In this document: piece by piece, positions 9,796 to 49,403 of the stretch | How positions within the stretch are numbered: the stretch's first letter is position 1 | Layout: every line of letters begins with the position of its first letter | Virus record (IMG/VR): IMGVR_UViG_3300035034_002381 | Coordinates: 1 to 64,000 of that record | Source of the DNA: a virus | Taxonomy: Duplodnaviria > Heunggongvirae > Uroviricota > Caudoviricetes | Reading direction: 5' to 3' (one strand) | Length of the DNA: 64,000 nt | Made by a program: the position numbers and the translations under genes | Notes under the pieces: generated by a model | Seen by the model: only the letters and a program-made list of their open reading frames with translations | What the model was told of the DNA's origin: nothing | Databases searched by the model: none

Positions 9796-9796
9796 C

Positions 9797-9876: not shown

Positions 9877-9881
9877 CAAAT

Positions 9882-10129: not shown

Positions 10130-10135
10130 CTAAAC

Positions 10136-10209: not shown

Positions 10210-10214
10210 CACTT

Positions 10215-10297: not shown

Positions 10298-10301
10298 CTA
10301 T

Positions 10302-10379: not shown

Positions 10380-10404
10380 CAAAGAAGCAAAGAGTTAGTT
10401 AGGT

Positions 10405-10479
10405 TAGACTGGCTTGTTATGTGGTGAAATTGGTAAACGCGAGCGCTTTGGTGCTTAGTAACCTTAACACTTCTTATTT
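10405..10479 (+). ncRNA. Partial tRNA-like element: a Leu-type D-arm gtg-gtgaaattggtaaac-gc plus a hairpin, with no T-arm. It abuts the next tRNA
   Basis: Shares its D-arm sequence with the 10788-10899 element. Confidence 0.3.
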
Positions 10480-10553
10480 GCTGAGTTAGTATAGTCGGTT
10501 TATTACGATACCCTGGTACGGTATTAACACCAGTTCGATTCTGGTACTCAGCT
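10480..10553 (+). tRNA. tRNA-Thr (GGT)
   Basis: Perfect acceptor gctgagt/actcagc, anticodon stem atacc/ggtat with loop ctggtac, T-arm accagttcgattctggt. Confidence 0.7.
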
Positions 10554-10565
10554 CATGAAAAATAT

Positions 10566-10645
10566 GCCTCTGTGGATTATGTAAATTGGCACAGCTAACG
10601 GTTTCAAACTCCGATCTTTTATGGGTTCGAATCCCATCAGAGGCA
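10566..10645 (+). tRNA. Atypical tRNA-like gene, family member 4; anticodon-like hairpin cgg(t)-ttcaaac-(t)ccg (CAA)
   Basis: Perfect acceptor gcctctg/cagaggc, conserved block tggattatgtaaattggcacagctaa, T-arm atgggttcgaatcccat. Confidence 0.5.
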
Positions 10646-10661
10646 CAAGTAGGAGAAATTT

Positions 10662-10746
10662 AGTCCAGTGGCGAAACAGGTATACGCACAAGATTTAAGC
10701 TCTTGCTTCCATTGAGGAATTGCGGGTTCGATTCCCGCCTGGATTA
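10662..10746 (+). tRNA. Class II tRNA-Leu (TAA), canonical architecture
   Basis: Acceptor agtccag/ctggatt, D-arm gcg-aaacaggtata-cgc, anticodon stem caaga/tcttg with loop tttaagc, variable arm ttccattgaggaa, T-arm gcgggttcgattcccgc. Confidence 0.65.
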
Positions 10747-10787
10747 CTAAGTTAGTACGGGTTCGATCCCCGTCTTGGCTACTAAAT

Positions 10788-10899
10788 TTGACCGTGGTGA
10801 AATTGGTAAACACACCCTTAAATCAGGGAGTATGAGAATATGTACTTGAAGCTGACGCAGAACATCATACATATGTAGGTTCGAATCCTATCGGTCGAA
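10788..10899 (+). ncRNA. 112-nt tRNA-like RNA with a roughly 45-nt extra stem-loop (atatgta...tacatat) inserted before the T-arm
   Basis: Acceptor ttgaccg/cggtcga, Leu-type D-arm gtg-aaattggtaaa-cac, anticodon-like ccc-ttaaatca-ggg, T-arm gtaggttcgaatcctat. Confidence 0.4.
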
Positions 10900-10904
10900 C
10901 AAAT

Positions 10905-10978
<74 letters not shown>

Positions 10979-11325
10979 CTATCTAAAACTTTATTCAATT
11001 TCCATAATATAATGTGTAACTAAACTTTATAGAAATGGAAAAAATACTAATGTCTGAAATTTTGACTTATGACAACTTCGACGACGGTTTACCTGAAGAA
11101 TATGAATTTGTCGATTCTGAACAAACATATTTTGATGGTGAAAAAGGCTTTGTTAATATCGAAGCTATTATCAGAAGAGAATCAGACTCACAATTTTTAA
11201 AGTAAAATACACCGATTATGGAAAAGGTGAAAATGATCTTATGGAAAGTGTGGGCGAACCTGTAACTCAAAAATCCAAAACAATTTTCTACTATGTAACT
11301 CAAAAATCCAAAACAATTTTCTACT

Positions 11326-17119: not shown

Positions 17120-19195
17120 ATGAACAAAGATTCTAATGTATTATTAATACTTGAAAGATCTTCATCAAATCTAGATGTTAACAAGGAATCGGGTGATTAT
17201 ATTCTCGAAGGTATTTTTGCTCAATTTGGAGTTGAAAACAATAACAAAAGGATTTATGAGGAAAAAGAGTATTTACCACATCTCGAATACTTAAAAAAGA
17301 AAATTTCAGAAAATCGATTGATGGGAGAACTTGATCACCCAGAAAAATTTGAAATTGCTTTAGACAAAGTATCTCACGTAATTGAGAATATTGAATATGA
17401 TCAAGCAAAACGCCAGATTAAAGGGCGTGTACGTATTTTAGATACGCCATCCGGAAAAATCGCAAAGAGTCTAATCGACTCTAATATTCCTATTAGTATT
17501 TCATCACGAGCTGCTGGTTCTGTGAGTGAAAATAAAACTGTTTCTATTAAGAGAATTTTTACTTATGATTTAGTTGCTGATCCAGGTTTTGAAGATGCAC
17601 AATTATCAAGAATAAATGAATCATTTGGTTTAGACAACGAAAATAATCTACAAATTTTTGATGCTTCTAGATGGGACAACAATTTTTCGTTTGATGAAAA
17701 AGAAAAAGAAAAGCCTGTTGAGGCAATAAAAGAAAATAAAGAAAATACTACAGATATGAAAGAATTTGTGACAATTGAAAGCATGGAACGCTATTCATTA
17801 ATGGTCAAAGAAGAAATTGCTAAAATCAATACACGATTAGAAACTCTGAATGAGAGTAATGCTAATTCTGATGAAACAGCAGAACTTAGAAAAACCGTTG
17901 ATAATTTAGTAGGGTATGTTAATGAAATGGCTACCGAAATTAATCAAAACAGAGAATACATGTCATATACTGCTGAAATGCTTGACGAAAGTATTTCTTG
18001 GTCAGAAAATGAGATCGGTAATCAAGTTACTAAATTAATTGAATATACTGAATCTGAATTGGCTGTTCATCTTGATGGTTTAATTGAACACAATAACTAT
18101 CTTGCAGAAAAATTAAACACGACTATTGGATACGTTAATGAAGAATTGGCTCCAATTTTAGATGAGTCTATTAATCACAATGATTATTTAGTTGAACAAA
18201 TTGCTAATAACCGAAAATATACTGAGTATCTTGCTGAAAATGCTGTAGACTCAACAAATTTTGATTCGTTAGTAGAATATACTGAACATGTATATGAAAA
18301 TGCTGCTGGAAAATTTGAAGGTAAAATTAATGAATCTGCAACTGCTGAGGATGTAATTAAAAAACATAAACTTAAAACACATCACGATGTTGCTAAGTTT
18401 ATAGGAGATTTTTATGATTTACCAGATACAATTAAAGGATCTACCGATAAATTCACATTTAAAGACGTTGAGGACAACGTAATTAAAGTTGATGGTAAAG
18501 CAGGAACAGTAGACGGTAAAAAATTATCTCTGGCGGGATTGGTTGATCTTATGTCAGGTGGTGATTTTGATCTTCTTATTGAAAATCAAGCTAATAAAAT
18601 TAACGAAAATAAAAACGTATCAACAGATATTGAAAATCGATACATGAGTATCAATGAAAAAATTGACGCGGCTCTTGAGCAGATCAAGAAAACAAAGACT
18701 GAAGAAATCACAGAGTCTAAACGTCATCCTTTCACCAAACTACTCAACGAAAGTAATAGAGCTGCTTTCACTGAGTTAGGAAAAACCGAAAAAGAAAAGG
18801 TTTCAAAAGCTCTAAATGAAAACGGTATTTTAAGTACTGTAAAACTTAACGAAAAATTCACTTCATTGTTAGAAGGTAATTTCGAAATTGTTGAAGAGCC
18901 TAAATGGTTATCTGAAGCACCAGACAAGTATAAAGCTATTTTTGAAAGTTTGAATGAGGAAACTCAGGATAAACTTAGAGCTCAAGCTTCATGGTACGAA
19001 GGTAAACTTAAATCTCCTTATCAAATCGAAAATTTCTGGGCAACTAGAGGACTGAACGAAGACGTTGAGTTGAAGAATCTGAAAGACGATGCTGATGTAA
19101 AACTTATTAAAGAAAGTAATGATAGATCTAAAGATCTGGGTTATTCTTCTGATCGAGTTGCTGCAATTAAACAAGGTCTGAAAAGATTCAAATAA
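17120..19195 (+). CDS. Probable prohead protease fused to a scaffolding-type coiled-coil domain
   Basis: Sits immediately upstream of the major capsid gene. The N-terminal roughly 200 aa contain EGIFAQFGVENNNKRIYEEKEY...GELDHPE (T4 gp21 / S77-like). The rest is an acidic, heptad-rich segment typical of scaffold proteins. Confidence 0.5.
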   Translation: MNKDSNVLLILERSSSNLDVNKESGDYILEGIFAQFGVENNNKRIYEEKEYLPHLEYLKKKISENRLMGELDHPEKFEIALDKVSHVIENIEYDQAKRQIKGRVRILDTPSGKIAKSLIDSNIPISISSRAAGSVSENKTVSIKRIFTYDLVADPGFEDAQLSRINESFGLDNENNLQIFDASRWDNNFSFDEKEKEKPVEAIKENKENTTDMKEFVTIESMERYSLMVKEEIAKINTRLETLNESNANSDETAELRKTVDNLVGYVNEMATEINQNREYMSYTAEMLDESISWSENEIGNQVTKLIEYTESELAVHLDGLIEHNNYLAEKLNTTIGYVNEELAPILDESINHNDYLVEQIANNRKYTEYLAENAVDSTNFDSLVEYTEHVYENAAGKFEGKINESATAEDVIKKHKLKTHHDVAKFIGDFYDLPDTIKGSTDKFTFKDVEDNVIKVDGKAGTVDGKKLSLAGLVDLMSGGDFDLLIENQANKINENKNVSTDIENRYMSINEKIDAALEQIKKTKTEEITESKRHPFTKLLNESNRAAFTELGKTEKEKVSKALNENGILSTVKLNEKFTSLLEGNFEIVEEPKWLSEAPDKYKAIFESLNEETQDKLRAQASWYEGKLKSPYQIENFWATRGLNEDVELKNLKDDADVKLIKESNDRSKDLGYSSDRVAAIKQGLKRFK

Positions 19196-19213: not shown

Positions 19214-21007
19214 ATGAAACTTTTAAACGAACAAAAGATCTATGATGAGTGGGCTCCTATGCTAGAGGAGGAAACTTCAATCAAAGATTCTTCAAAATTG
19301 GGATGGATGACTAAATATTGTCACTACCATTCATTAAATGAAGCATTCACTGCACCTGCAGCTGGATTGCTTAACACGCCAGGTATGGGTAATGTAACTC
19401 CTGCTGGAGCTGCTGCCGGTGGTGCTAATGCATTCTACGGAAGTACTACTACTGGTTCAGGAGATAAATTCCCTTCATTATTGCCACTATCTATTCAGGT
19501 AGCTGCAAGAACTGTAGGATTTGATATCGTTCCTGTTATTCCTATGAACGGACCTTCGGGGGTTCTTACATACATGGATTATGTCTATGCTGGTGGAAAA
19601 GGAGCATTCGGAGCACCTCCAGGTGCTGCAGGTGCTGCAAACCCAGGTCTTAACGCTTACGCTGACAAGCCGTTAGTATTCAAAATCCAACTTGTTGGAG
19701 ATGAGAAAACTGCTTTCGATGCTGCTGCTGCGGGTGATGAATTCTTATTTGCTTCTGGTGCACTTGCTGCAACTGGAAACACACTACGTGTTGCTAAAAT
19801 CGGTCCTTCTAGAATCGACGGTCACTCTATTTTTAGAGTAATTGGAGAATCTGGTGATGCTGATGCGACTGGCGGTGCAGCTGCTGCTGTAGCGACAACT
19901 CTTACATCGCCACAATCTATCACATTGGCTTCTGTATTTACAGGAACTGCTGCGATGATTACTGCGGCTGGTGCTTTAGTTGATGCTGCTGATTCAGTAG
20001 TTAATCGTCCAGAACTTGTTAAAGCTCTTGAAGATCACGTTCAAGGTTTTGCTGGTGCAGGTCCAAACGATGATGAAGCATGGTCAGGAAATGCGACTGA
20101 TGGTACTGTATCTTACGAACCAATGCGAAGAGGTGTAGGTGAAGAGCAGTACTTCAGAACTATGGGACTTCAAGCTTTCACGAAATTCATTGAAGCTGAA
20201 ACTTTCCAAGTTGCTGCTAATGTTACTACAGAACAAATTCAAGATTTACAACGTCAGTATGGAATCGATGTGATTGCAATGATCGAGAACTCATTAGTAA
20301 ATGATATCTCTCAATCTATTAACAAGCACATTCTTTCTAGAGCTTTCGCTCTTGGATGGGGTGCAAACCTTACATTCAGAGATGTTGAAGGTGCAAACCT
20401 TAACCTTGAATTGGTAAACACTGGAACTGGTGTTACTGCAACTCCTGCTTACATTGATAAGACTGGAGTAGGTACTGCATCTGTATATCCTGCTTTCCAA
20501 GAATTTGCTGGAGCTGCTGCTGCTGCATCATTGGAAAACCAAGCAACATTCCAACGAAGAGTATATTCTAAAGTACTTGCTGCTGGAAACGTTGTTACTC
20601 AAAGAGGACGTAGAGGACCTGCAAACTTCATTGTTACTAACCTTCAGTTAGCGACAGCGTTGCAAGATTCTGCACAATTCTCTTGGGCACCAATGGCAAA
20701 CACCATTAACCAAAACAACGGTTCGCTTTACCCAGTGGGTACTGTAGCCGGAATGACTGTTTATGTAGATCCTAACATGGGATTCTCTGATAACAGAATT
20801 CTTGTTGGACGTAAAGGTGCTGATGAAGAACCAGGACTTAAATTCATGCCTTACTTAATGGCTGAATCAATCCAAACAATTGCTGAAGGTACAATGGCTC
20901 CGAAAGTTGCCGTAAAATCACGTTATGCTTTAGTTGAAGCTGGACACCACCCAGAAACAATGTACTTTACTATTGCAGTAAATGTACCTGTAGGTGGATT
21001 AGTATAA
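19214..21007 (+). CDS. Major capsid protein
   Basis: 597-aa Ala/Gly-rich protein directly after the protease/scaffold gene, followed by a strong terminator, with codon usage typical of highly expressed virion genes. Confidence 0.6.
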   Translation: MKLLNEQKIYDEWAPMLEEETSIKDSSKLGWMTKYCHYHSLNEAFTAPAAGLLNTPGMGNVTPAGAAAGGANAFYGSTTTGSGDKFPSLLPLSIQVAARTVGFDIVPVIPMNGPSGVLTYMDYVYAGGKGAFGAPPGAAGAANPGLNAYADKPLVFKIQLVGDEKTAFDAAAAGDEFLFASGALAATGNTLRVAKIGPSRIDGHSIFRVIGESGDADATGGAAAAVATTLTSPQSITLASVFTGTAAMITAAGALVDAADSVVNRPELVKALEDHVQGFAGAGPNDDEAWSGNATDGTVSYEPMRRGVGEEQYFRTMGLQAFTKFIEAETFQVAANVTTEQIQDLQRQYGIDVIAMIENSLVNDISQSINKHILSRAFALGWGANLTFRDVEGANLNLELVNTGTGVTATPAYIDKTGVGTASVYPAFQEFAGAAAAASLENQATFQRRVYSKVLAAGNVVTQRGRRGPANFIVTNLQLATALQDSAQFSWAPMANTINQNNGSLYPVGTVAGMTVYVDPNMGFSDNRILVGRKGADEEPGLKFMPYLMAESIQTIAEGTMAPKVAVKSRYALVEAGHHPETMYFTIAVNVPVGGLV

Positions 21008-21116: not shown

Positions 21117-22802
21117 ATGAACACTTCAGTCAAAGATATTATAAAAAACGTAAAATCCACCAAAGGTTTAGCAGTAAAAATATCAAATTCAGAAAGTCTA
21201 AATAAAGAACTTTTAGAATTAACCAAATACCTACCAACAGACTCTAGTATATCTGAGCGCATTTATAATATCTTAAATAATATTGATGTACAAAGTCTTT
21301 GTATTTGTGGTGACACATTACCATTCATTAAAATTTCCAAAGGTTACAAAACTTCGTGTGGTAATAAAGAATGTAAGTCGCGAACACGGAGTAATATTAA
21401 TAAAGAATCCAGTAAGAAAATAGACTGGGGCGAATCGATCAATAAACAACAAAAAACCAATTTACAAAAATACGGTTATGTTTCTAATCTTGCATCACCT
21501 AAAGAACGAGAAAAACATAAAGTTATTCTTAAAGAATTGACTGGATATGAACACCCATTACAGAATCCTGAATCTAAAAAGAAAAGACATAACACTTGTA
21601 TAAAAAATCATGGTACATTAAATTTCATCCATTCAAATAAATCAATACAAACGTTACAAGCAAAATATAATACCACTGCCACTAATTGTGCTCAAATACC
21701 CGAAATTCAAGATAGATCTGCCAAAACCCAATCTATAAATGCTGATAAAGCTTTATATCAAAAAATTGATAAAATAAATAAAACTATAATAGATCTTAAT
21801 AAAACAAATGCTAATATTGAGTGTGTGGGTTGTGGTCGTATTATGAATATACATCGGCAAGCACTCAATTATTATATTCGAAATTCTATTGACAATTGTT
21901 GGTCTTGCAACCCTGATTTTTCACCATTTGCCAGTAACAAAGAAAAGATGATTGTTACATGGCTCACTGATATAGGTATCACAAATATTGACACAAATCG
22001 CCGGAGATTTGGTGGTAAAGAAATAGATATTTTCTTAAATGATTATAACCTAGGAATTGAATTCAATGGCACATATTGGCATAGTGAATTACACAAAGAA
22101 AAAAATTACCATTTAAATAAAAAAACATATATTGAGAACTTGGGTTTCAAGTTGATTAATGTTTGGGAAGATGATTGGGAAGATGATATAAAACGTAATA
22201 TAATTCAAAGCAGAATTAAAAATTTAATAAACCTAAATCACCGCAAAATATATGGGCGTAAATGTCAGATAGTTCAAATATCTAACAAAGAAGCTAAAGA
22301 ATTTTATACCAATAATCATATTCAAGGTCATGCTATATCAGAAATTAACTACGCATTAGTATATGATAATGAAATTGTTTCAGTCATGAGCTTTTCTAGT
22401 AAAAATAGATTTTTCATTAAGAAAAATAGGGATAATGAAATAGAGTTGACTAGATTTGCAAATTTGATAGGTGTAAGTGTTTTAGGTGGTTTCTCTAAAC
22501 TATTCAAACATTTTTTGAAAAATAATGACCATGATACCATTATTTCATTTGCAGAATTTGATTGGACTGATGAGACTAATAATGTTTATCTTATGAATGG
22601 TTTTAAATTTTTAGGGAATTCTGGACCATCGTATTCATGGGTTGTTAATGGAAAACGGTTTTCTAGATTTAACTTTTCTAAGCAAAAATTAATCAAAGAA
22701 GGTTATGATAAGAATAAAACAGAAGTCGAAATAATGCACGAAAGAAAATATTATCGAGCTTGGAATAGTGGTAACTTAAAATTTATTTATAATAAATTAT
22801 AA
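21117..22802 (+). CDS. Free-standing homing-endonuclease-like protein: two Cys4 zinc fingers, a Vsr/DUF559-type (PD-(D/E)xK-like) nuclease core and a C-terminal putative DNA-binding region
   Basis: CICGDT...CGNKEC and CVGCGR...CWSCNP zinc fingers. The core IDIFLNDYNLGIEFNGTYWHSELH resembles the Vsr FVDGCFWHGH motif. The gene is inserted between the capsid gene and a recoded copy of the capsid gene 3' end. Confidence 0.55.
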   Translation: MNTSVKDIIKNVKSTKGLAVKISNSESLNKELLELTKYLPTDSSISERIYNILNNIDVQSLCICGDTLPFIKISKGYKTSCGNKECKSRTRSNINKESSKKIDWGESINKQQKTNLQKYGYVSNLASPKEREKHKVILKELTGYEHPLQNPESKKKRHNTCIKNHGTLNFIHSNKSIQTLQAKYNTTATNCAQIPEIQDRSAKTQSINADKALYQKIDKINKTIIDLNKTNANIECVGCGRIMNIHRQALNYYIRNSIDNCWSCNPDFSPFASNKEKMIVTWLTDIGITNIDTNRRRFGGKEIDIFLNDYNLGIEFNGTYWHSELHKEKNYHLNKKTYIENLGFKLINVWEDDWEDDIKRNIIQSRIKNLINLNHRKIYGRKCQIVQISNKEAKEFYTNNHIQGHAISEINYALVYDNEIVSVMSFSSKNRFFIKKNRDNEIELTRFANLIGVSVLGGFSKLFKHFLKNNDHDTIISFAEFDWTDETNNVYLMNGFKFLGNSGPSYSWVVNGKRFSRFNFSKQKLIKEGYDKNKTEVEIMHERKYYRAWNSGNLKFIYNKL

Positions 22803-32816: not shown

Positions 32817-33455
32817 ATGAACATATTTGTTCTTGACGAAAATGTCAAAAAATGTGCCGAATATCATTGTGATAAACATGTTGTCAAAATGATTACTGAG
32901 CATAATCAAATTTTGGGTTCGATTTCTTATTTACGTAGAGGTATTTCTAAAAAATCGGAAATAACTGATGAATTTATTCAACAACATTTCCAAAATTTTC
33001 CTAGAAAAAAATTAGCAATTGATATGGATTCATTACCCATTGCTGATCATTCGCCACTTATCAAAAAATTATGGAATTTTGTAAAACCCGCAGAATTGTC
33101 TTGGCCGTACGGTATTGGTTATAAAAATCATCCATGTACACAATGGGCTAATGCGTCTAAAGAAAATTATGATTGGCTATGCTCACTCAATCTTGAATTG
33201 TGTAAAGAATATACTAAACGATATAATCGTCGACATGCTGGTGAGGATATTACTCAATGGTATATTGAAAACGCACCATATCTACCGAATTCTGGCATGA
33301 CTCCATTTGTTTTAGCTATGCCTGATGATTGTAAATCTGATGATCCAGTTGAATCTTATCGAATTTACTACATTTATCATAAATATAAATTTGCCAAATG
33401 GAAAACAAAAGTTCCAAATTGGTATATAAACGTTATAAAACATCAAGAAATATGA
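32817..33455 (+). CDS. Hypothetical protein
   Basis: 212-aa ORF with a conserved-looking N-terminus MNIFVLDENVKKCAEYHCDKHVVKM; no family assigned. Confidence 0.4.
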   Translation: MNIFVLDENVKKCAEYHCDKHVVKMITEHNQILGSISYLRRGISKKSEITDEFIQQHFQNFPRKKLAIDMDSLPIADHSPLIKKLWNFVKPAELSWPYGIGYKNHPCTQWANASKENYDWLCSLNLELCKEYTKRYNRRHAGEDITQWYIENAPYLPNSGMTPFVLAMPDDCKSDDPVESYRIYYIYHKYKFAKWKTKVPNWYINVIKHQEI

Positions 33456-34009
33456 CAATCAAACACAGAATAACTGATTCTGAAAATACCCATGTTATGC
33501 TCGACATAGAAACTTTGGGTACTGGTGCTAATGCAATCATTTTACAGATTGCAATGGTCAAATTTGGTCTTAACGATCAAAATGGTGAAACAATGAAAAC
33601 TATAGTTAATGTTTTTCCTTGTATCAAAGAACAACATGATGAAGGTAGAACAATGACTTTCGATACAGTTAACTGGTGGCTTGGTCCAGATCATGTGAGC
33701 ATATTAGCAAATCTGCGGAAACAGGAAACATCCAATTTGGTAGATGTTAGATCTCAAATAGCTAAGCACATGGAAGAATTTAGGAAATCGGGAGTTCATC
33801 TGTGGGCAAGGTCACCCAAATTTGACATCAAGATTTTAGAAGATTTTTTAGGAACAGATGTGCCAGAACATTCCCGAAGGCACCAAAGAGATGTTAGAGA
33901 ATATGAATTTATTTCGGGCGATCGCCCAGGTGCATCCCATGATGCAGAAGATGATTGTATTCAACAAATTATATTAGTCACTAATGTTATTCAAAGACTT
34001 TTTATATGA
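33452..34009 (+). CDS. DnaQ-like (DEDDh) 3'-5' exonuclease
   Basis: Exo I motif MLDIETLG, Exo III motif HDAEDD; ATGA start/stop overlap with the upstream gene. Confidence 0.6.
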   Translation: MTIKHRITDSENTHVMLDIETLGTGANAIILQIAMVKFGLNDQNGETMKTIVNVFPCIKEQHDEGRTMTFDTVNWWLGPDHVSILANLRKQETSNLVDVRSQIAKHMEEFRKSGVHLWARSPKFDIKILEDFLGTDVPEHSRRHQRDVREYEFISGDRPGASHDAEDDCIQQIILVTNVIQRLFI

Positions 34010-34122
34010 TAACCTCGATAGTAGAAATTATTAAAGAATCTCTAATTGGTAAATCAGTTATAGTTGCCGAGTATTACCCGGATAACAATGAGGGAAATTA
34101 CAAATTCTAAAATAAAGTTAAC

Positions 34123-35022
34123 ATGATATCAGAAGAAAAATTTCCCGATGGACAAATTAATTTTAAAGCAAATACAGAGGACATCAAAAGTCTTTTAACA
34201 CCACCATACATTTTATCAAATGATAATGCGATAAATTTTACAATTGATCTAAGTAACTGGGATAAATTTCAAACTTTGTTGGCAGCCAATGCAAAATTTA
34301 GACAAACGCACAAACAAATTAATTTACATATAGGTTATCTTTTTGGTTCAAGAAGTGACCGTAAATTTGAACATGACGGAATTAACTATTTTCGTGATGT
34401 AATTGCTAAAACAATCAATGATCAAAATTTCAACAAAGTTACTGTATTTGATCCACACTCACTTGCAGTAGAAAATGCAATTAATAATTGTGAGAGTATT
34501 CATCCGTTCCCACAAATCAATCACCATTTTTTAAATATGGTTGGAAATTTAGATTTATCTGAATATGAAATTGTTATAGCGTCTCCAGACCTTGGGGCAT
34601 ACAAAAAAGTCTTTGGAATTTTTGCTAAATTTTCCGAAAAATATCCAAACATACATTTTAATTTTATTTCCGCAAATAAAATTCGTAGTCTGTCTGGTGA
34701 TATTTCTATGGTTTTAAATCCACCATATAAAGAATTTGACAAATCAAAAAAACGAATTCTATATTTAATTGATGATATTTGTGATGGCGGGAGGACCTTT
34801 ATAGAATTTGCTAAACTTCTTAACGAAGATTTTGAGAAAAAGTATCTATATGTATCACATGGAATATTTTCTAAAGGTCTTGATCCATTATTAGAACATT
34901 TCGATAAAATTTTTACTACAAACAGTATTTCGAATACTTATATCAAATATCTAACAAACGATAATACCATTCTAAATTCTAACATTCTTTTTACCACATT
35001 TATTTCGCAACGCAATGAATAA
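34123..35022 (+). CDS. Ribose-phosphate pyrophosphokinase (PRPP synthetase)-like enzyme, or alternatively an Adps-type ADP-ribose pyrophosphokinase
   Basis: PRTase-type loop YLIDDICDGGRTF at the position of the Prs DDMIDTGGT, in a 299-aa protein. Confidence 0.55.
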   Translation: MISEEKFPDGQINFKANTEDIKSLLTPPYILSNDNAINFTIDLSNWDKFQTLLAANAKFRQTHKQINLHIGYLFGSRSDRKFEHDGINYFRDVIAKTINDQNFNKVTVFDPHSLAVENAINNCESIHPFPQINHHFLNMVGNLDLSEYEIVIASPDLGAYKKVFGIFAKFSEKYPNIHFNFISANKIRSLSGDISMVLNPPYKEFDKSKKRILYLIDDICDGGRTFIEFAKLLNEDFEKKYLYVSHGIFSKGLDPLLEHFDKIFTTNSISNTYIKYLTNDNTILNSNILFTTFISQRNE

Positions 35023-35989
35023 AAAAGCAACAATTCTTCTTGGACTGCCATTAGCAGGCAAGTCGACTTATATAGGAAACAGAATAGAATATGGTGATTG
35101 GTCAGACACAGGATTAGTTTTAGTATCTGCAGATGATCTTAAAGAAAATCATGAAGATTATGATCCCGACCATGCGTATAAAATTCATGAGTGGTCAGTT
35201 AAAGAGGCCGAAAGGCAAATGAAAGAATACTCAGAATTTGGATCAAAACACATTATCATGGACGGTGGTGGCATTAACAATTCATATACTCGTAGAATTA
35301 TGTCTGATCTACGTTTAAAAGGTTATGAAATTGAACTTATACATATTAAAACGCCGCTCCAAGTTTGTCTTCTTAGAAATGAGAAGCGGGTCCGCAAAGT
35401 TCCAGTGCATGATATTGTAACAAAGGCAGCTCGAGAACGTAAACAATATGAGATACTTAAAGATGTTGTAGATAGTGTTACTATAGTTCCATATTTCACA
35501 AACAAACATATTTTTATAGATATGGATGGAGTTATTGCGGGACAGTCTGTCTTGCCAGAATTTGAAGGAAAAATAGATTTTGTTAATAGCGAAATTTTTA
35601 CTATTTTACCACCTGTTCATCAAGTTATTGATAAACTTAATAGTCTTGATTCTGAAAAACATACACTTTATATTTTATCAGCAACACCGAATTCATATTC
35701 GTATACTGAAAAACATGATTGGTTAGATAAACATTTTAACATACCAAGAGAACGCAGATTTTTTGTAAATGCTGGAAAGCATAAAGCAGAAATGTTAGAA
35801 AATCTAAGAATAAAACTCAAAACTGATAAACGTGATGTCACTCTGATTGAAGATACGCACTCGACACTTAAAGATGTTAGAGACCTTAGAATGAATCCAA
35901 TACATGTATCTGAATTTTTATCAAATGATTTTTTGCGAGATGAAGAATTATATGACTATAAATATTACGAAAACCCAAATAATAAATAA
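35015..35989 (+). CDS. Two-domain P-loop kinase plus HAD phosphatase (T4 Pnkp-like polynucleotide 5'-kinase/3'-phosphatase architecture)
   Basis: Walker A GLPLAGKST at the N-terminus; DxDG motif IFIDMDGVIAG at about residue 168, as in T4 Pnkp. Confidence 0.5.
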   Translation: MNKKATILLGLPLAGKSTYIGNRIEYGDWSDTGLVLVSADDLKENHEDYDPDHAYKIHEWSVKEAERQMKEYSEFGSKHIIMDGGGINNSYTRRIMSDLRLKGYEIELIHIKTPLQVCLLRNEKRVRKVPVHDIVTKAARERKQYEILKDVVDSVTIVPYFTNKHIFIDMDGVIAGQSVLPEFEGKIDFVNSEIFTILPPVHQVIDKLNSLDSEKHTLYILSATPNSYSYTEKHDWLDKHFNIPRERRFFVNAGKHKAEMLENLRIKLKTDKRDVTLIEDTHSTLKDVRDLRMNPIHVSEFLSNDFLRDEELYDYKYYENPNNK

Positions 35990-35995
35990 AAAGAT

Positions 35996-37714
35996 ATGAG
36001 AAAAATGAACGCTTTCTTAGCAACCGATGGTTATAAAACAGGCCATCACATAATGTATCCTGAAGGAACTATTGAGGTATATGATAATTTAACACCCCGC
36101 AGTTTTAAATACGCAATCAACAATGTCGAGTATGTTATTGCTGTGGGTCAAAAAATGGCAGTCACAGAAATCAACGATATGTTTAACGAAACATTTTTTA
36201 GACATGAAGATGTTGAAAGACTTGCCTTTCATTTATTTAGACAAGGATTACCTGAACAAAAAGCTAAAGAAACCGCAAGAAATAAAATTAAAGCCGAAGT
36301 ATGTAGTGAAATCAAAAAGGAGTTTTCGTTATATCTAGATATGAAATATGATGTTTCGCATATTGAAAGACTTTGGGATTTAGGATATCTTCCTGTAAAA
36401 ATAAAAGCTTTACCAGAAGGTGTAAAGGTCCCAATAAAGGTTCCTGTACTTACAATTGTAAATACTTTGCCAGATTTTTTCTGGTTACCTAATTTCTTGG
36501 AGACTATTATTTCTAATTTGTTATGGAAACCTATGACATCTGCAACTATTGCGTACGAGTTCAAGAAAACTTTGACTAAATGGGCAATGAAAACTGATAG
36601 CAAAAATGTTTCTATTGTAGAATTTCAGGCACATGATTTTTCAATGCGAGGAATGGATTCTATTTATGCTGCTGCTTCATCAGGTTTAGGTCATGCATCA
36701 TCATTCCTTGGAAGTGATACAATACCAGTAATTCATGCAGCAAGATATTATTATGGTGATCAAGGTCCTATTATACATTCTGTAAATGCTACAGAACACA
36801 GTGTCATGTGTGCTGGAGAAAAAGATAGTGAAATTGAAACATTCAGACGATTATTGCGTCTTTTCCCGACAGGAATCTTATCAGTAGTTTCTGATACTTG
36901 GGATTTATGGAAAGTGATAGTAAAATATCTTCCTGAATTAAAGGACGAAATTCTAAAAAGAGCAGGAAAACTGGTTATTAGACCTGACTCTGGAAATCCT
37001 GTTGATATTATTTGTGGTTTTGATCATAATAGATTTGATACACACGAAGAAGCAGAAAAATATTATAGAACTTATGGAATAAAAGATCCAAAATACTATG
37101 TAAAAAACGAATTCTTTACTGTAATTTCACATTCAGGCAACAATTTTAAATATGCAGATTTAGAAGAGACTCCTGCTGATAAAGGAGTCGTGCAATTATT
37201 ATGGGAAATCTTTGGAGGGCAAATAAATGAAGATGGATTCAAAGTTTTAAATGAACACATTGGCGCAATTTATGGTGATAGTATTAATTTCGAAAGAGCA
37301 AATCAGATTTGTGAGAGACTAGCCAGCAAAGGATTTGCGACTACAAACGTTGTACTTGGAATAGGATCCTTCACATATCAGTATAACACTCGTGATAACC
37401 ATGGATTTGCCGTTAAAGCTACTCATATAACTATTCAACATCCTGATGGAAAAATGGAAGAAAGAGACATATTCAAAGACCCACTAACATCGGTAGGTAC
37501 AAATAAAACTAGTGCTAAAGGATTTATTCAAGTACTTAAAGAAAATGGAGAGTATATTATGAGAGATCAGGTTAGTAGAGAACAAGAAGAAAATTCTTTA
37601 CTTACAATGATTTATTTAGATGGTAAAGTTCTTTCCGAAGACACACTCAAAAGTATTCGTAGAAATGTGAATAACGAATTGGCTGTTGAATTAGGATTAT
37701 ATGAAGTAGCATAA
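35996..37714 (+). CDS. nadV: Nicotinamide phosphoribosyltransferase (NadV / NAMPT) family enzyme
   Basis: N-terminus NAFLATDGYKTGHHIMYPEGT matches the NAMPT-family TDSYK start; 572 aa. Confidence 0.65.
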   Translation: MRKMNAFLATDGYKTGHHIMYPEGTIEVYDNLTPRSFKYAINNVEYVIAVGQKMAVTEINDMFNETFFRHEDVERLAFHLFRQGLPEQKAKETARNKIKAEVCSEIKKEFSLYLDMKYDVSHIERLWDLGYLPVKIKALPEGVKVPIKVPVLTIVNTLPDFFWLPNFLETIISNLLWKPMTSATIAYEFKKTLTKWAMKTDSKNVSIVEFQAHDFSMRGMDSIYAAASSGLGHASSFLGSDTIPVIHAARYYYGDQGPIIHSVNATEHSVMCAGEKDSEIETFRRLLRLFPTGILSVVSDTWDLWKVIVKYLPELKDEILKRAGKLVIRPDSGNPVDIICGFDHNRFDTHEEAEKYYRTYGIKDPKYYVKNEFFTVISHSGNNFKYADLEETPADKGVVQLLWEIFGGQINEDGFKVLNEHIGAIYGDSINFERANQICERLASKGFATTNVVLGIGSFTYQYNTRDNHGFAVKATHITIQHPDGKMEERDIFKDPLTSVGTNKTSAKGFIQVLKENGEYIMRDQVSREQEENSLLTMIYLDGKVLSEDTLKSIRRNVNNELAVELGLYEVA

Positions 37715-37790
37715 TGGAACAAGTTACATAATTTTCTAAAATAAACTGATTCTATTAAAACTTTTCAAGTCTAGATTAATATAAAATATA

Positions 37791-39107
37791 ATGAAAAGAT
37801 CTGGTATTAAAGTAGCGGTATTTCCCATGGGTTCAATTATCCGATTTAGGAAAGATGGAATCAAAAGATCGTTTGGTCGTTTAGAATATTATAATTTGAT
37901 TTGGGCGTTGGCCAGAAATCCAAGTATTTCGGAAATTTGGCTTTTACAAGTTTCTGATTGGGAACAATTGACTGATGATGAAAAAATTGATTTTGATCCT
38001 AGAAAAGTTATTCGTAACATTTATGCGGAATTTAAAGTAGACAAACCTAATAGTAAAAAACAAGAATCTTACGCTGATCTTTGGAACAAAATTTCTCATC
38101 TTAAGCAACCTGATTTTGCAATTGTATTTTCTACACAAGGTCTTACTAGAATTTCTATACCAAATATTATACCTAAAGTAAAAAATCCTGAAGAAAAAGC
38201 TAAATGTTTAGAAATGACAATACGCTATTGTTCTTCACAAATGTATTATCTAAACAATTCAGAAATTCCATATTTTTTGGTAGTTAATGATGGCAGATTT
38301 TTGTATACTAATACACATACAAAATATCTGGATATGTTTAATTTACCCAAAGAAATCATGGGATTTTACAAAAATGATGATTATATACTTCATCATTATG
38401 ATAAAATGCCGGATGATGGTGGCAAAATGACTACTGATGTTGTTAAGTTATCATACAGTAAAATGATTTGGCTTAATAATATCAGTGAAAAAATCATAGA
38501 CCCTGCCAACATAGAGAAAACTGAAAAGTTTTCTATTGTAGCTATGCAGGCAGCTTATGGTAAAGATAAACATGATCCTAGATATTCTATTCTAAAGGAG
38601 TGGTTTTTAGACGTAGATGGAAATGAAGATGTTTCGATTTATGGTAAATGGGGAGAATCTTATGTTAAAGATTATCAACATTTTAAAGGCTTAAAGCCAC
38701 ATACTGAAATTGATGAAATTTTCAAGAAAACTAGGTACACATTATTGATTCCAACAGAACCTTTATGGGTAACTACGAAAATATGTGAGATGTTGAAATT
38801 GGGTGTTGTCCCGTTTTTGCATCCTAGTTATGATGAAAAAAATCTATCATTTGGAGAGGATTCATTTTTTAGAGTAAAAAATCCGGAAGATTTAAAAAAG
38901 AAGATTTCATTTTTAGAAAAAAATCCAGATAAAAGAATCAAGCTCATACAAAAGGCTCAAGAAAAATATATGGAAGGTGTCACAAACGGAACTTGTGTCG
39001 TCGACGCAATTAATCCATATCTTCAACGGGCTAATATTGATGTAGAATTGCAACATGGATTTAGTGATGAACTAATTCGTAAGCGCAAAGTTAAAAAATT
39101 ATTTTAA
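37791..39107 (+). CDS. Putative GT-B glycosyltransferase with resemblance to phage DNA beta-glucosyltransferase
   Basis: N-terminal KVAVFPMGSIIRF and C-terminal PLWVTTKICEMLKLGVVPFL pattern-match T4 BGT (MKIAIINMGNNVINF ... LRVWETMASDAVMLID) only loosely; recalled from memory. Confidence 0.3.
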   Translation: MKRSGIKVAVFPMGSIIRFRKDGIKRSFGRLEYYNLIWALARNPSISEIWLLQVSDWEQLTDDEKIDFDPRKVIRNIYAEFKVDKPNSKKQESYADLWNKISHLKQPDFAIVFSTQGLTRISIPNIIPKVKNPEEKAKCLEMTIRYCSSQMYYLNNSEIPYFLVVNDGRFLYTNTHTKYLDMFNLPKEIMGFYKNDDYILHHYDKMPDDGGKMTTDVVKLSYSKMIWLNNISEKIIDPANIEKTEKFSIVAMQAAYGKDKHDPRYSILKEWFLDVDGNEDVSIYGKWGESYVKDYQHFKGLKPHTEIDEIFKKTRYTLLIPTEPLWVTTKICEMLKLGVVPFLHPSYDEKNLSFGEDSFFRVKNPEDLKKKISFLEKNPDKRIKLIQKAQEKYMEGVTNGTCVVDAINPYLQRANIDVELQHGFSDELIRKRKVKKLF

Positions 39108-39110
39108 ATT

Positions 39111-40319
39111 ATGAAGAATAAATTTTCTAAGGATGGACATTGGAGATTCGGTACTATAGTTCCATTAATCGGGGGAATGACCATATCCAACCAACAAGCA
39201 ACCGGAGATAATCCGGACTTTTTAATATCTTATCCAGCGTTTGCAGGCAATGATTCTCATTGTGTTAATCATTTTAAAGATACCCCATATTATGTAGTCG
39301 ACCCAGAAACTAATGAATTACCTGAAGACGATACTTTTCAAAATGTAGATTTTGTGTCTGCAGTGTGCCCATGTGCAGGACTTTCTATGTTAAATACTTC
39401 TAAGAAAAGAGGATCTGATGCAGAAATGAATAATTGGATGTATAAATCTGCAGAATTAGTTTTAGAACAAATTAAACCCAAAGTTTTTTGGGGGGAGAAT
39501 GCACCAGGTCTATATACAAAATCTGGTGAAGGTGTAGTCAAAAAATTGAGAGAAATTGCTGAAAAGAATGGTTATGTACTTTCATTAGTCAAAACTAATA
39601 CCTTTTTACATGGTATACCACAACATAGAACTAGAACTTTTTACTTTTTTTGGCAAGGTAAACATGCGCCAATACTGAATTATACCGAGCGGGATGCACC
39701 AACTCTTAAAGAATATCTAGATCAAATTCCTGAAAATGCTTCTATGCAAGATGAAAAATTCGGCTTAGAAAGTATGAATAGTCTTTGGTTTAAATTCTTA
39801 AAAGATCAAAACATAAAAATTTCAGATGTACAAAAAAGTACGTGTAAATCAATTATGGATTATTGTGTAGCCGAAAAATTGATGCCGAAAATGGTTGATT
39901 GGGGTGAAGAAAATGGATATGATAAAATGGTCAGGACTGCTAAGCATATTCTACATAAACAATCTATGGGTAAAGGTTGGTGGGACGCTACACCATTAGT
40001 ACCAACAGATACTATTAATGCGCTGATTAGTAAGAATGCTGGAATTGTCCACCCGAACGGAGAAAGACCAATTAATACCCGAGAAGCTTTATGGTTAATG
40101 GGATTACCACATGATTTTACTATGGTCGATTATGACAATAGAAAAAATAGCAATCACATTTGCCAAAACGTACCGGTAACCACTGCAAAAGACTGGACAT
40201 TCGAAGTGATGAAATTTATCAATAAAGATATTGAAAAAATTGCAACGCCGTTTCTAAAACAAAACAATATCAAACAAAGAATAGATTTACAAGAAAATAA
40301 ATCCAAAGCACTTTTTTAA
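39111..40319 (+). CDS. DNA (cytosine-5)-methyltransferase
   Basis: Motif I PLIGGM, motif IV CPCAGLS (PC...S), motif VI GENAPGL (ENV-type), motif VIII PQHRTRTFYF (QxRxR). Confidence 0.7.
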   Translation: MKNKFSKDGHWRFGTIVPLIGGMTISNQQATGDNPDFLISYPAFAGNDSHCVNHFKDTPYYVVDPETNELPEDDTFQNVDFVSAVCPCAGLSMLNTSKKRGSDAEMNNWMYKSAELVLEQIKPKVFWGENAPGLYTKSGEGVVKKLREIAEKNGYVLSLVKTNTFLHGIPQHRTRTFYFFWQGKHAPILNYTERDAPTLKEYLDQIPENASMQDEKFGLESMNSLWFKFLKDQNIKISDVQKSTCKSIMDYCVAEKLMPKMVDWGEENGYDKMVRTAKHILHKQSMGKGWWDATPLVPTDTINALISKNAGIVHPNGERPINTREALWLMGLPHDFTMVDYDNRKNSNHICQNVPVTTAKDWTFEVMKFINKDIEKIATPFLKQNNIKQRIDLQENKSKALF

Positions 40320-44030: not shown

Positions 44031-44603
44031 ATGAAAACAATTATTATTGAAGGATGTGATAGAGTAGGAAAAGATACAGTTTGTAATGGAATAAAACTGA
44101 CTGCGGACTGTTTACTTTATCGACATTGGCTTAAACCTAAAGGTCAAACTAATGATGAAAGAGTTAATTATCAAAAGACAACATTTAAAAAGGAATTTGA
44201 TTTACGTAAATCTTTTTTGGATGATTGGTATCTTAATGATAATGATAAAAATTCTGATTTAATTCTTTGGAACAGAAGTCATATTGGAGAATATGTTTAT
44301 GGAAAACTATATCGAGACTATGATCCAAATTGGATTTATAATCTGGAAAATCTTTATAATTTTTCTGATAATAACATTTATTTGGTAATGTTATATGCAG
44401 ATCCAGATTTTTTGTGTGAGAATGATGATGGACATTCATTCAGTTCTGATATTGAAGGTAAAACGCAAGAAATCAATTTATTCCACGAAGCAGTGGATAA
44501 AAGTCTAATACCAAATAAAATAAAAATAAAAGTAAATGACGGAAAACGTTACCGAGACAGAAAAGAAATTAGAAAAGAAATTTTTGATCGAATCTTCAAT
44601 TAA
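44031..44603 (+). CDS. P-loop (deoxy)nucleoside monophosphate kinase-like protein
   Basis: Walker A IIIEGCDRVGKDT, comparable to T4 gp1 SGVKRSGKDT and Tmk IEGxxGxGKxT. Confidence 0.5.
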   Translation: MKTIIIEGCDRVGKDTVCNGIKLTADCLLYRHWLKPKGQTNDERVNYQKTTFKKEFDLRKSFLDDWYLNDNDKNSDLILWNRSHIGEYVYGKLYRDYDPNWIYNLENLYNFSDNNIYLVMLYADPDFLCENDDGHSFSSDIEGKTQEINLFHEAVDKSLIPNKIKIKVNDGKRYRDRKEIRKEIFDRIFN

Positions 44604-45468
44604 TCAAAGATTCCAAGAACTTATTGAGCAGATTGAGATATCTGCAGAAATGAATGGTACAGTTAATCCACGAGATTTACTGGTTAAAGAATCACTACTT
44701 ACAGGATTTTCTATTGATCCAAGATATCCATGTATAGATTTCGAAGCAAGAAAATTCAACTATAAATATTTTGCTGCTGAGGTTGCATGGTATTTATTAA
44801 AAGATAATACAACAGAATTTATTTCTAAGTTTTCCAATTTCTGGAATAATATTACAAATCCAGATGGAACTATTAATTCTAATTATGGAAAAATTCTATT
44901 AACACAAATAAACAATACTATCACACCAATAGCATGGGTAGTAAATTCTTTAAGAAAAGATAAAAATTCTAGACAAGCAATTGCATATATTGGAAGTAAG
45001 GATTTTCAATATGAAGGAAATAAAGATTTTGTGTGTACTCAATATATTTTGTTTTTTATTCGAAACGATGAACTTCATATGAAAGTTCAAATGAGATCAA
45101 ACGATATTTTTTATGGATTATCTTATGATGCTCCTTGGTTTTCGTTAGTTCATCAAAATACATTTCTTGAACTAAAAGAATTATATCCAGAATTAAAAAT
45201 TGGAAAGTATTTTCATTTTTCTGATAACTCACATTTTTATCAAAGACATTTTAGTAAAGCTCAAGAAGTCTTACAAGAAGAGGTTAAGCTTGGTCCTAAA
45301 ATTGTTCTTGAGAAACCTTTATGGAGAACTTATGAAAATGGTAATTGCGTTATTACTGAAACGGCTAGTAATTATATAGATTTTTTCAATAAAAATTTAG
45401 GTGATTTATCCGAGTATAAAAACGAACAATTTAAAGAAGTTCTCAAAAAAATCGTAAAAATTAACTAA
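44536..45468 (+). CDS. Thymidylate synthase-family pyrimidine C5-transferase with a cytosine-type specificity residue; putative dCMP hydroxymethylase or methylase
   Basis: CTQYILFF matches the ThyA catalytic CHxxxQFY. QMRSNDIFYGLSYDAPWFSLV matches ThyA [21 protein letters not shown], with Asp at the ThyA Asn177 position. GKYFHFSDNSHFYQRH matches GDFVWTGGDTHLYSNH. The start codon is uncertain. Confidence 0.65.
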   Translation: MTENVTETEKKLEKKFLIESSINQRFQELIEQIEISAEMNGTVNPRDLLVKESLLTGFSIDPRYPCIDFEARKFNYKYFAAEVAWYLLKDNTTEFISKFSNFWNNITNPDGTINSNYGKILLTQINNTITPIAWVVNSLRKDKNSRQAIAYIGSKDFQYEGNKDFVCTQYILFFIRNDELHMKVQMRSNDIFYGLSYDAPWFSLVHQNTFLELKELYPELKIGKYFHFSDNSHFYQRHFSKAQEVLQEEVKLGPKIVLEKPLWRTYENGNCVITETASNYIDFFNKNLGDLSEYKNEQFKEVLKKIVKIN

Positions 45469-48273: not shown

Positions 48274-48876
48274 ATGCAAGGACAATTATACCAATGGCAA
48301 AAAGGTGAATACATTGAACAATATTCTAAAGCTATCGATGTAGAAGAAGAAGGCGAGATGTCATTTCTGATTTTTGAAGATGGTAGAAGAATTAACATCG
48401 AACTTATTGAAGAATTTCTTATACCAGTAAATTCAGAAGACGAAGGTTATATTATCAGAGAAGAAGTTATAGATGATTTAGTAGAAATGAAAGGTAAAGA
48501 CGGTGGGATATATACTGTTCCTGGACCAGATCATGGTAAGCGTCGGATCACGAAAAAACCTAAAACCAAACAAGCCAAACCCATCATCACATCGACACCT
48601 AAACAACAAATTAAAGAGGAACCTAAAAATCTTTATCCTAATGATCCTATAATAGCACTCTTAGAAAAATCAAAAAAGGTCACCAAACCTATTAATATAA
48701 CATTACGTTTAGATATTATTACACAAGGTACATACGATCTGATTATTGACAATTTTGAAGATAGTGAAGAAAGCATTGTTGAATATTTGATTTCTTCTAT
48801 CGATAAAAAGGAATTAGTGGAAAGTATAAAGGTTCAACTTAAAGGTTCGTATTCGAAAACACCAATCACAGTATGA
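48274..48876 (+). CDS. Hypothetical acidic protein
   Basis: Start set to the ATG (MQGQLYQWQ) after the upstream stop; the 48112 start on the track overlaps the previous gene. Confidence 0.4.
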   Translation: MQGQLYQWQKGEYIEQYSKAIDVEEEGEMSFLIFEDGRRINIELIEEFLIPVNSEDEGYIIREEVIDDLVEMKGKDGGIYTVPGPDHGKRRITKKPKTKQAKPIITSTPKQQIKEEPKNLYPNDPIIALLEKSKKVTKPINITLRLDIITQGTYDLIIDNFEDSEESIVEYLISSIDKKELVESIKVQLKGSYSKTPITV

Positions 48877-49403
48877 AAGATAAAAATTTAAAATATGAAT
48901 CGAAGAGATTTAACGTTGTTAAAAAACAGGGTAGAGTTAAAATAGATTATAAAAAAATGACAGTTGGCGTTTTACCATATACTATTAAAGATGGACTCCT
49001 AGACAAAATTGGTATTCTGCATGAATGGAATCCTACAAGACAAGATGATTTTTGTCACACGATAATCACTGGTACTGTAGACCCAGAAGATACTGATTAT
49101 CTTTTTGCGGCAAAAAGAGAATTACTTGAGGAAGGTGGCATTAAAGATACTAATGACGATAATTGGATATTTTTAGGTTCATTTTACGTTTCAAAAGGCA
49201 GTAATGAAATGTGTCACACCTTTGCAGTAGATGTTACAGATCTAGAAATTGGTGAAGCAGTAGGAGATGGTTCTGATGCTGAAGAAAAATCTGAATTTTC
49301 TTTAATGGATTCAGGAAATGCAATTACAATTACTAATGAAAGTTTAGTCTTAGCCTCATTTCTAAGACTGTTTGACTTCTTTTATCAAAAGAATAATGGG
49401 TAA
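48873..49403 (+). CDS. Nudix-like hydrolase
   Basis: LFAAKRELLEEGGI resembles the Nudix box REUxEExGU. Confidence 0.4.
   Translation: MKDKNLKYESKRFNVVKKQGRVKIDYKKMTVGVLPYTIKDGLLDKIGILHEWNPTRQDDFCHTIITGTVDPEDTDYLFAAKRELLEEGGIKDTNDDNWIFLGSFYVSKGSNEMCHTFAVDVTDLEIGEAVGDGSDAEEKSEFSLMDSGNAITITNESLVLASFLRLFDFFYQKNNG

Follow-up and report, generated by a model that had tools for sequence, protein, structure and literature searches.

Introduction

Depletion of nicotinamide adenine dinucleotide (NAD+) is among the commonest anti-phage strategies of bacteria. A phage pathway that rebuilds NAD+, NARP1, was described in 2024 by Osterman et al. (bioRxiv 10.1101/2024.02.11.579819) and consists of the two enzymes Adps and Namat, for which structures are available (PMC12774641, PMC13586617). 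Here we analyse a three-gene locus of a virus of the Caudoviricetes (IMG/VR record IMGVR_UViG_3300035034_002381, positions 1 to 64,000; this whole stretch of 64,000 nucleotides is referred to as the window), in which homologues of adps and namat flank a gene for a fused kinase and HAD phosphatase. The locus is probably a NARP1 operon, and its middle gene encodes a putative accessory protein that accompanies NARP1 genes in many phages.

Accessory proteins of NARP1 have been published. Adpp, a Macro-domain phosphatase present in 15% of NARP1 operons, converts the aRES product ADP-ribose-1''-phosphate to ADP-ribose (bioRxiv 10.64898/2026.01.28.702374); operons of this type (Adps, Adpp, Namat) are known as NARP1-AP, and the supplementary table of NARP1 neighbours in the same study contains Macro proteins only. 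RyDEP, a RyR-domain glycosidase, converts cyclic ADP-ribose (ADPR) signals to ADP-ribose (bioRxiv 10.64898/2026.05.28.727677). Each of these accessories exposed a matching bacterial trick, namely the phosphorolytic cleavage of NAD+ by aRES in the case of Adpp and cyclic-ADPR signalling in the case of RyDEP. Of the other phage pathways, NARP2 combines a nicotinamide phosphoribosyltransferase (Nampt; NadV in phage KVP40) with the Nmnat/Nudix protein NatV, and NARP3 is an unrelated PnuC/NadR pathway. No kinase or HAD accessory of NARP1 is mentioned in the NARP1, aRES/Adpp, RyDEP and NARP3 papers or in the aRES supplementary table, and none was found by a full-text literature search. NARP1 itself is thus already published, and the kinase-phosphatase found in a subset of its operons is apparently undescribed.

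A three-gene locus with the layout of an extended NARP1 operon

The locus comprises three open reading frames (ORFs), ORF1 to ORF3, the second of which has two domains:

34123-35022, + strand: adps (ORF1), predicted ADP-ribose diphosphokinase, Prs-like, 299 amino acids; first NARP1 enzyme
35015-35989, + strand: ORF2, Pnkp-type bifunctional kinase-HAD protein, 324 amino acids; NARP1-associated putative accessory
35015-35488, + strand: N-terminal P-loop kinase of ORF2, approximately amino acids 1-158
35489-35989, + strand: C-terminal NT5C-like HAD phosphatase of ORF2, approximately amino acids 159-324
35996-37714, + strand: namat (ORF3), predicted nicotinamide ADP-ribose transferase, NAMPT-like, 572 amino acids; second NARP1 enzyme

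An earlier note on this DNA had placed a Prs-like and a NAMPT-like gene here, separated by a Pnkp-like gene. All three ORFs were recovered at these positions on the + strand, with family matches far beyond chance. ORF1 and ORF2 overlap by 8 nucleotides (ATGAATAA), and because the stop and start codons overlap, ORF2 is likely co-translated with adps. ORF2 and ORF3 are separated by a gap of 6 nucleotides, which places adps and namat 973 nucleotides apart on the same strand with ORF2 as the single gene between them. Gene callers prefer an alternative start for ORF3 at 36005, giving a protein of 569 amino acids. No terminator-like sites were found in 33300-38300, and promoter-like sites in this interval were no more frequent than expected from shuffled sequence; the operon boundaries were therefore set by gene spacing only.

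ORF1 groups with Adps rather than with Prs

ORF1 matches the phage family phrog_619 'ribose-phosphate pyrophosphokinase' (E 9e-49). It falls below the cut-off of the Pfam Pribosyl_synth model (21.3 vs 27) and below those of all NCBIfam models for housekeeping ribose-phosphate pyrophosphokinase (Prs), the best of which gave 53-54 bits against cut-offs of 113-518 (TIGR01251: 53 bits, cut-off 113); NCBIfam holds no separate model for Adps or for Namat. In the PDB, in a set apparently without Adps structures, the best match was an archaeal Prs at 25 bits. ORF1 was then compared with references from GenBank, comprising the Adps of phage ICP1, whose structures, activity and functional residues have been reported (PMC13586617), the Adps of Vibrio phage phi 3, which carries a NARP1-AP operon (Table S1 of bioRxiv 10.64898/2026.01.28.702374), an Ounavirinae Adps and E. 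coli Prs. By BLASTP, ORF1 scored 123 bits against phi 3 Adps and 102 bits against ICP1 Adps, compared with 45 bits against E. coli Prs. In a neighbour-joining tree with E. coli Prs as the outgroup, ORF1 lies within the Adps sequences (ICP1, phi 3, Ounavirinae and crAss).

The functional residues point the same way. The ADPR- and ATP-binding set of ICP1 Adps includes the PP loop C215-S220 (PMC13586617). ORF1 keeps F18, R87, F92, H121, D161, K185, D212, D213, I214, C215, D216, G217 and F221 of ICP1 Adps, its own equivalents being F7, R77, F82, H112, D156, K186, D217-G222 and F226. At F92, I214, C215, G217 and F221, where E. coli Prs has V, M, I, T and L, ORF1 is Adps-like; the Adps-specific residues of ORF1 are F82 (V in Prs), C220 (I), G222 (T) and F226 (L). 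F223 is not kept in ORF1, at a position that is variable across the family. By homology, ORF1 is an Adps and not a housekeeping Prs.

ORF3 carries the clamp signature of Namat

ORF3 matches the NAPRTase family (8e-38) and, more strongly, phrog_448 (8e-172). In a phmmer search of the PDB it scored 429 bits against entries 9W5X and 9W5W, compared with 208 bits against Xanthomonas Nampt and approximately 179 bits against human NAMPT. These two entries are SPbetaL1 Namat, according to the data-availability statement of the Namat structure paper. The NCBIfam model NF006629 also accepts ORF3, and it does not separate Namat from Nampt.

A Namat-specific clamp helix with the consensus GSX-phi1-X-phi2-X-phi3-TRD has been described, in which the aromatic X residues stack on the adenine of ADPR-pyrophosphate (ADPR-PP; PMC12774641). 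Amino acids 457-467 of ORF3 read GSFTYQYNTRD, which fits this consensus; the corresponding sequence of the NARP2-type Nampt of Aeromonas phage CC2 is GSWGFLKNSSRD. Stacking on the adenine by the clamp loop of Namat involves either an arginine at position 3 or a lysine or tyrosine followed by a stacking residue. In our alignment the clamp loop of ORF3 probably corresponds to S36-F37-K38-Y39, opposite T38-S39-R40 of SPbetaL1 Namat, so that K38-Y39 would take the place of R40, consistent with the lysine-then-stacking pattern of Bas63.

Whole-protein comparisons agree with these motifs. ORF3 scored 372-451 bits against Namat proteins encoded next to an Adps (ICP1 Namat, 375) vs 233 bits against the CC2 Nampt, and in a tree it groups with the Namat proteins that adjoin an Adps. 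Among 2,047 phage records there was a visible break between Namat-type matches at 34-46% identity and NARP2-type matches at 30% or less. ORF3 is therefore assigned to Namat, and not to Nampt, on sequence grounds.

Relative to SPbetaL1 Namat, ORF3 contains two insertions, at approximately amino acids 71-98 and 343-393. The Namat of a sister phage (L219) has just 504 amino acids, and lengths across related operons range from 488 to 831 amino acids.

The locus is better explained by NAD+ reconstitution than by plain salvage

The earlier note had preferred an Adps/Namat pair over plain NAD+ salvage and had noted the apparent lack of a nicotinamide mononucleotide (NMN) adenylyltransferase (NMNAT). 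For the 64-kb window this lack was confirmed: Pfam and PHROG scans of its approximately 50 ORFs, and the precomputed contig-wide Pfam matches, returned no CTP_transf_like/cytidylyltransferase-type or NadR-type family, and a six-frame search found no HxGH or ISSTxxR motif. The placements of ORF1 and ORF3, for which Prs and NadV had been the alternatives, also favour the pair. The neighbourhood of adps and namat in the window fits the published figure of 97% adjacency within the Adps clade (bioRxiv 10.1101/2024.02.11.579819).

In a plain salvage pathway of the NARP2/KVP40 type, ORF1 would make phosphoribosyl pyrophosphate (PRPP), ORF3 would make NMN, and an NMNAT of the host, or one of the phage not seen here, would complete NAD+. 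Some features are compatible with this, since a degree of NMN synthesis from PRPP persists in Namat enzymes in vitro (PMC12774641), NF006629 accepts both enzyme types, and the genome is incomplete, so that an NMNAT could be encoded outside the window. Set against this are the failure of ORF1 in all Prs models and its grouping with Adps, the Namat clamp of ORF3 and its distance from NARP2-type Nampt, the lack of an NMNAT in 64 kb, and a published survey in which no phage had both NARP1 and NARP2 (bioRxiv 10.1101/2024.02.11.579819). We consider plain salvage very improbable. With an Adps-like ORF1, a Namat-like ORF3 and no NMNAT in the window, the locus can be assigned with good confidence, by homology, to the NARP1 NAD+-reconstitution operons.

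In the predicted pathway, a host defence such as Thoeris, DSR, SIR2-HerA or SEFIR would split NAD+ into ADP-ribose and nicotinamide. Adps would then move the beta-gamma pyrophosphate of ATP onto the 1'' hydroxyl of ADP-ribose (ADPR + ATP -> ADPR-PP + AMP), and Namat would exchange this pyrophosphate (PPi) for nicotinamide (ADPR-PP + nicotinamide -> NAD+ + PPi). Both steps are expected from homology to enzymes of demonstrated chemistry.

A Nudix-like ORF at 48873-49403, which the earlier note had suggested might be related, was rejected as a part of this system. The ORF is real (176 amino acids; NUDIX, 26 bits) and has a near-canonical Nudix box (GTVDPED...KRELLEEGG). No NMNAT domain was found in it, its best PDB match, an ADPR pyrophosphatase, was not significant (E 0.14), and it lies 11 kb, or about a dozen genes, from the operon, to which nothing ties it. 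An enzyme with that activity would draw on the same substrate as Adps.

ORF2 is a Pnkp-type kinase fused to an NT5C-like HAD phosphatase

The N-terminal half of ORF2 matches P-loop kinase families (Zeta_toxin, AAA_33 and KTI12) and the C-terminal half is an NT5C-like HAD domain; the whole protein matches phrog_505 'polynucleotide kinase' (7e-13). Fold searches favour Pnkp-type kinases over deoxynucleoside monophosphate (dNMP) kinases, and the protein has the architecture of T4-type Pnkp, with a Walker A motif, a general-base aspartate, lid arginines and a fused DxDxT HAD phosphatase. Across 88 homologues, all catalytic motifs of the kinase and of the HAD half show no or almost no variation, and the kinase half has an invariant aspartate typical of hydroxyl kinases. 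In sequence, the HAD half has more in common with nucleotidases of the NT5C type than with the phosphatase of T4.

The family is small, with approximately 33 full-length members in a library of 1.84 billion cluster representatives, and was seen only in phage and metagenome sequence; no bacterial or archaeal homologue was found in 185,579 species genomes. Close relatives in the representative library that appear to be split into kinase-only or HAD-only proteins are contig fragments too short to inform. Relatives in IMG/VR were retrieved by alignment-based queries; single-protein queries of IMG/VR with ORF2 and ORF3 gave no matches.

The kinase-HAD gene is linked to NARP1 genes across phage lineages

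Loci were collected from IMG/VR, from metagenomes and by exact look-up, and scored with hidden Markov models (HMMs) for Adps, Namat and both halves of ORF2. Clustering of the kinase-HAD proteins at 75% identity gave 18 clusters, two of them on contigs that are too short, leaving 16 informative lineages. Namat and/or Adps adjoin the kinase-HAD gene in 14 of these 16. In 11 lineages the gene is immediately flanked by adps on one side and namat on the other, once in mirrored order, and its start overlaps the adps stop in several. The linked lineages include T4-like phages, a cyanophage and the Lak megaphages, and the linkage survives changes in gene order. The same cassette surrounds the closest relative (73% identity). 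Full-length relatives in the phage record collection were confined to Leptolyngbya phage Lbo-JY46 and the Lak megaphages, in both of which they adjoin a Namat homologue. The earlier note was right that the middle gene is Pnkp-like, as the fold search confirms; what the note did not see is that the gene is no bystander and is conserved in NARP1 operons of many unrelated phages.

Among 127 pooled neighbouring ORFs from 12 lineages, Namat and Adps were the only recurrent Pfam families, and no RNA ligase was among the recurrent families. Only one of 74 partial or HAD-only relatives was near NARP1, namely a kinase-only gene between Adps and Namat. Conversely, among NARP1-type loci of IMG/VR, the 80 closest to ORF3 all lacked the full kinase-HAD gene, and 16 of them (20%) contained the Macro-domain Adpp. 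This frequency is close to the published 15%, and the scoring thus recovers the known accessory. Near five of the 80 operons there were weak kinase matches, left uncounted, to a separate family of small Pnk-like kinases.

As an observation on related architectures, a kinase-only relative of ORF2 (159 amino acids, without the HAD half) lies between Adps and Namat on metagenomic phage contigs (L043, 8975-12073; L153, 130-2771).

Possible roles of the kinase-HAD protein

Gene linkage and motifs suggest a role for ORF2, and candidate substrates, and we tentatively propose that the protein could act as an accessory 'feeder' of NARP1. Its HAD half would remove the phosphate from forms of phospho-ADPR that Adps cannot use and so yield ADP-ribose, in the manner of Adpp in NARP1-AP. 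Its substrate could be ADPR-1''-phosphate, the 2'-phospho-ADPR that would arise from cleavage of NADP+, or products of ADPR-cyclic phosphate. The kinase half would phosphorylate a ribose hydroxyl of a pathway metabolite, our preferred guess being the conversion of NAD+ to NADP+. One scheme, offered as speculation, would use both activities: the 2'-phosphate is stripped from the NADP+ cleavage product, NAD+ is rebuilt, and NAD+ is re-phosphorylated to NADP+. With further reserve, the kinase-HAD protein may serve as a third enzyme dedicated to a separate variant of NARP1, in which the phosphatase recycles phospho-ADPR and the kinase acts on a pathway metabolite. If so, the phage would rebuild a wider pyridine-nucleotide pool or counter an undescribed form of NAD(P)+ destruction. 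A role specific to aRES is weakened, because none of 332 cyanobacterial genomes yielded aRES, yet the kinase-HAD gene occurs in a cyanophage, and because in one locus (L010, see below) the kinase-HAD gene co-occurs with a Macro-like ORF.

The strongest rival, a serious one that we rate as the less likely of the two, retains ORF1 and ORF3 as NARP1 and makes ORF2 an ordinary polynucleotide kinase-phosphatase located beside them. Such an enzyme would heal the ends of tRNA or mRNA cut by nucleases of the host (5'-OH; 2',3'-cyclic or 3'-phosphate) for sealing by a ligase of phage or host, and would owe its place in the operon only to the tendency of anti-defence genes to cluster and to the movement of the cassette as one piece. 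Several observations weigh against a NARP1 accessory and towards this explanation. The fold of ORF2 is of the Pnkp type, the phage carries 21 tRNA genes, and the kinase-HAD gene stands alone in two lineages. In small trees of Adps and Namat, moreover, the kinase-HAD-bearing operons cluster together; part of the 14 linked lineages may therefore stem from one ancestral cassette and not be independent associations. In favour of an accessory role, the linkage to Adps and Namat (mostly exactly between the two, with overlapping codons) is tighter than loose clustering in a defence island, and the HAD half resembles NT5C-type nucleotidases, enzymes of small-molecule substrates, more closely in sequence than it does the T4 phosphatase. 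Other genes found at this position speak for it as well, namely those for a kinase alone (L043, L153), for an unrelated HAD protein (cr126_1, see below) and for Adpp and RyDEP, both of which supply NARP1 with ADP-ribose. Scans of the 64-kb window detected no RNA ligase family, in line with the pooled neighbours above. T4 pnkp and rnl are also unlinked, and for this reason the absence of a ligase is not decisive.

A role of ORF2 in nucleotide pools, as a dNMP or nucleoside kinase joined to a 5'(3')-deoxynucleotidase that serves the DNA-modification and nucleotide genes and is unrelated to NAD+, appears improbable. It would suit NT5C, a deoxynucleotidase family, and the surrounding 20 kb, which holds thymidylate-synthase-like, DNA methylase, glycosyltransferase and methyltransferase genes. 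It does not suit the fold search, which points to Pnkp-type and not dNMP kinases, nor the fact that the kinase-HAD gene follows Adps and Namat into the cyanophage, Lak phages and other phages without such modification-gene neighbourhoods.

The proposed accessory role is of interest since a third unrelated accessory that is nearly always found with NARP1 suggests that there is a further NAD-derived molecule which phages recycle or neutralise. The substrate of ORF2 could reveal an unrecognised defence chemistry, or the rebuilding of NADP+ by phages. The finding matters more if the accessory acts on an NAD-derived metabolite; if ORF2 serves merely in RNA repair, the locus is one more NARP1 operon.

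Variant loci

Several related loci differ in content or order. In Lak megaphages of Prevotella a Namat-like gene is directly followed by the kinase-HAD gene (L003, 3004-7041; L216, which is Lak-A1, 182500-232400; L030, 8381-11041), and a search for Adps up to 25 kb away, allowing for TAG recoding with translation tables 11, 15 and 4, gave no match. The clamp motif of the Lak Namat-like protein, GSFTYNVRSRD, is just partly Namat-like. The Namat gene of Lak-A1 is split by an insertion of approximately 1.3 kb that other Lak genomes lack.

In the crAss-like phage cr126_1 (L002, 5007-7705), the order is Namat, a 141-amino-acid HAD phosphatase and Adps. The HAD protein has a weak match to the BT0820 family and is annotated as 'phosphoheptose isomerase'. 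It was rejected as an orthologue of the HAD half of ORF2, whose HMM misses it, and belongs to a different HAD subfamily. It adds a further undescribed phosphatase to the middle slot of NARP1, which now holds phosphatases of at least three unrelated kinds.

In L010 (2553-12897) a Macro-like ORF (49 bits with the Adpp HMM) lies upstream of Adps, the kinase-HAD gene and an unusually long Namat of 831 amino acids, and the Namat gene is followed by a Gad2-family gene and a T4-type RNA ligase 1. Mutual exclusivity of Macro Adpp and kinase-HAD was rejected, as this locus has both. On a phage contig of 250 kb, a NADAR-domain ORF (L007, 2426-2911) lies approximately 2.2 kb upstream of an Adps, kinase-HAD, Namat cassette; the NADAR family comprises hydrolases related to ADP-ribose.

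Genome setting

The phage is a T4-like myovirus whose genes include those for a Gp23 major capsid protein (19214-21007) and a prohead protease (17120-19195). The window, which corresponds to metagenomic contig ena:ERZ27315366:k141_21517 (64,373 bp), covers only part of a larger T4-like genome. No nucleotide relative of the operon was found among 50,697 phage records, so that the phage has no close sequenced relative in that collection. Other copies of the phage, from different samples, have an ORF of 78 amino acids immediately upstream of adps (L012, 8876-9112). In the window the intergenic gap upstream of adps is just 113 nucleotides (34010-34122) and no such ORF was called.

The 21 tRNA genes lie in three clusters (229-1094, 3901-4355 and 9277-10979), a large number for 64 kb, and those present in duplicate include Met, Tyr, Ile, Val, Thr, Leu, Ser and Arg. 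Such a set may be relevant to defences that target tRNA and to the possibility that ORF2 acts in RNA repair.

Around the operon, a block at 24900-46700 encodes glycosyltransferases, an FkbM methyltransferase, a SET-domain protein, a 565-amino-acid NTP_transferase, LicD and a pyruvyl transferase, together with a C5 DNA methylase (39111-40319) and a thymidylate-synthase-like gene (44536-45468). The block could represent either a DNA hypermodification module or one for glycans. A DUF7487/MTES_1575-like ORF (21117-22802) directly follows the major capsid gene, and genes of the same family (L004, 2796-4580 and 6942-8678) flank a stand-alone kinase-HAD gene in a lineage without nearby NARP1; this may be a family of mobile endonucleases.

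Comparison with known systems

Compared with NARP2 of KVP40, the locus shares an enzyme of the NAMPT family, and the genome encodes a Nudix protein. It differs in that ORF3 falls outside the Nampt clade, no Nmnat was found, and the Nudix ORF stands alone 11 kb away. Compared with T4 Pnkp (PseT) and bacterial Pnkp, ORF2 is just 16-19% identical and has an NT5C-like HAD half; it also differs in its NAD+-reconstitution context, in which no partner RNA ligase was seen.

The likeness to NARP1 is the closest. The window has both core enzymes, adjacent and on the same strand, each with its signature, no NMNAT was found alongside them, and the predicted chemistry is identical. The canonical NARP1 operon has two genes, whereas here the 324-amino-acid kinase-HAD protein is encoded between them. 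Namat of the window further differs by its two insertions relative to SPbetaL1, and the proteins are 33-45% identical to characterised members.

With NARP1-AP the locus shares a three-gene layout with a predicted phosphatase in the middle, and the same logic of converting phospho-ADPR to ADP-ribose would apply. The middle protein of the window differs in being a HAD domain joined to a P-loop kinase and is not homologous to Adpp. An HMM of nine Adpp sequences from the literature scored phi 3 Adpp at 195 bits and detected nothing in the window, and Pfam scans of the window found no Macro domain. RyDEP, whose fold and chemistry are unrelated to ORF2, is likewise an accessory within a NARP1 operon that feeds in ADP-ribose from another NAD+-derived molecule, and the slot of ORF2 between adps and namat is the one occupied by both published accessories, Adpp and RyDEP.

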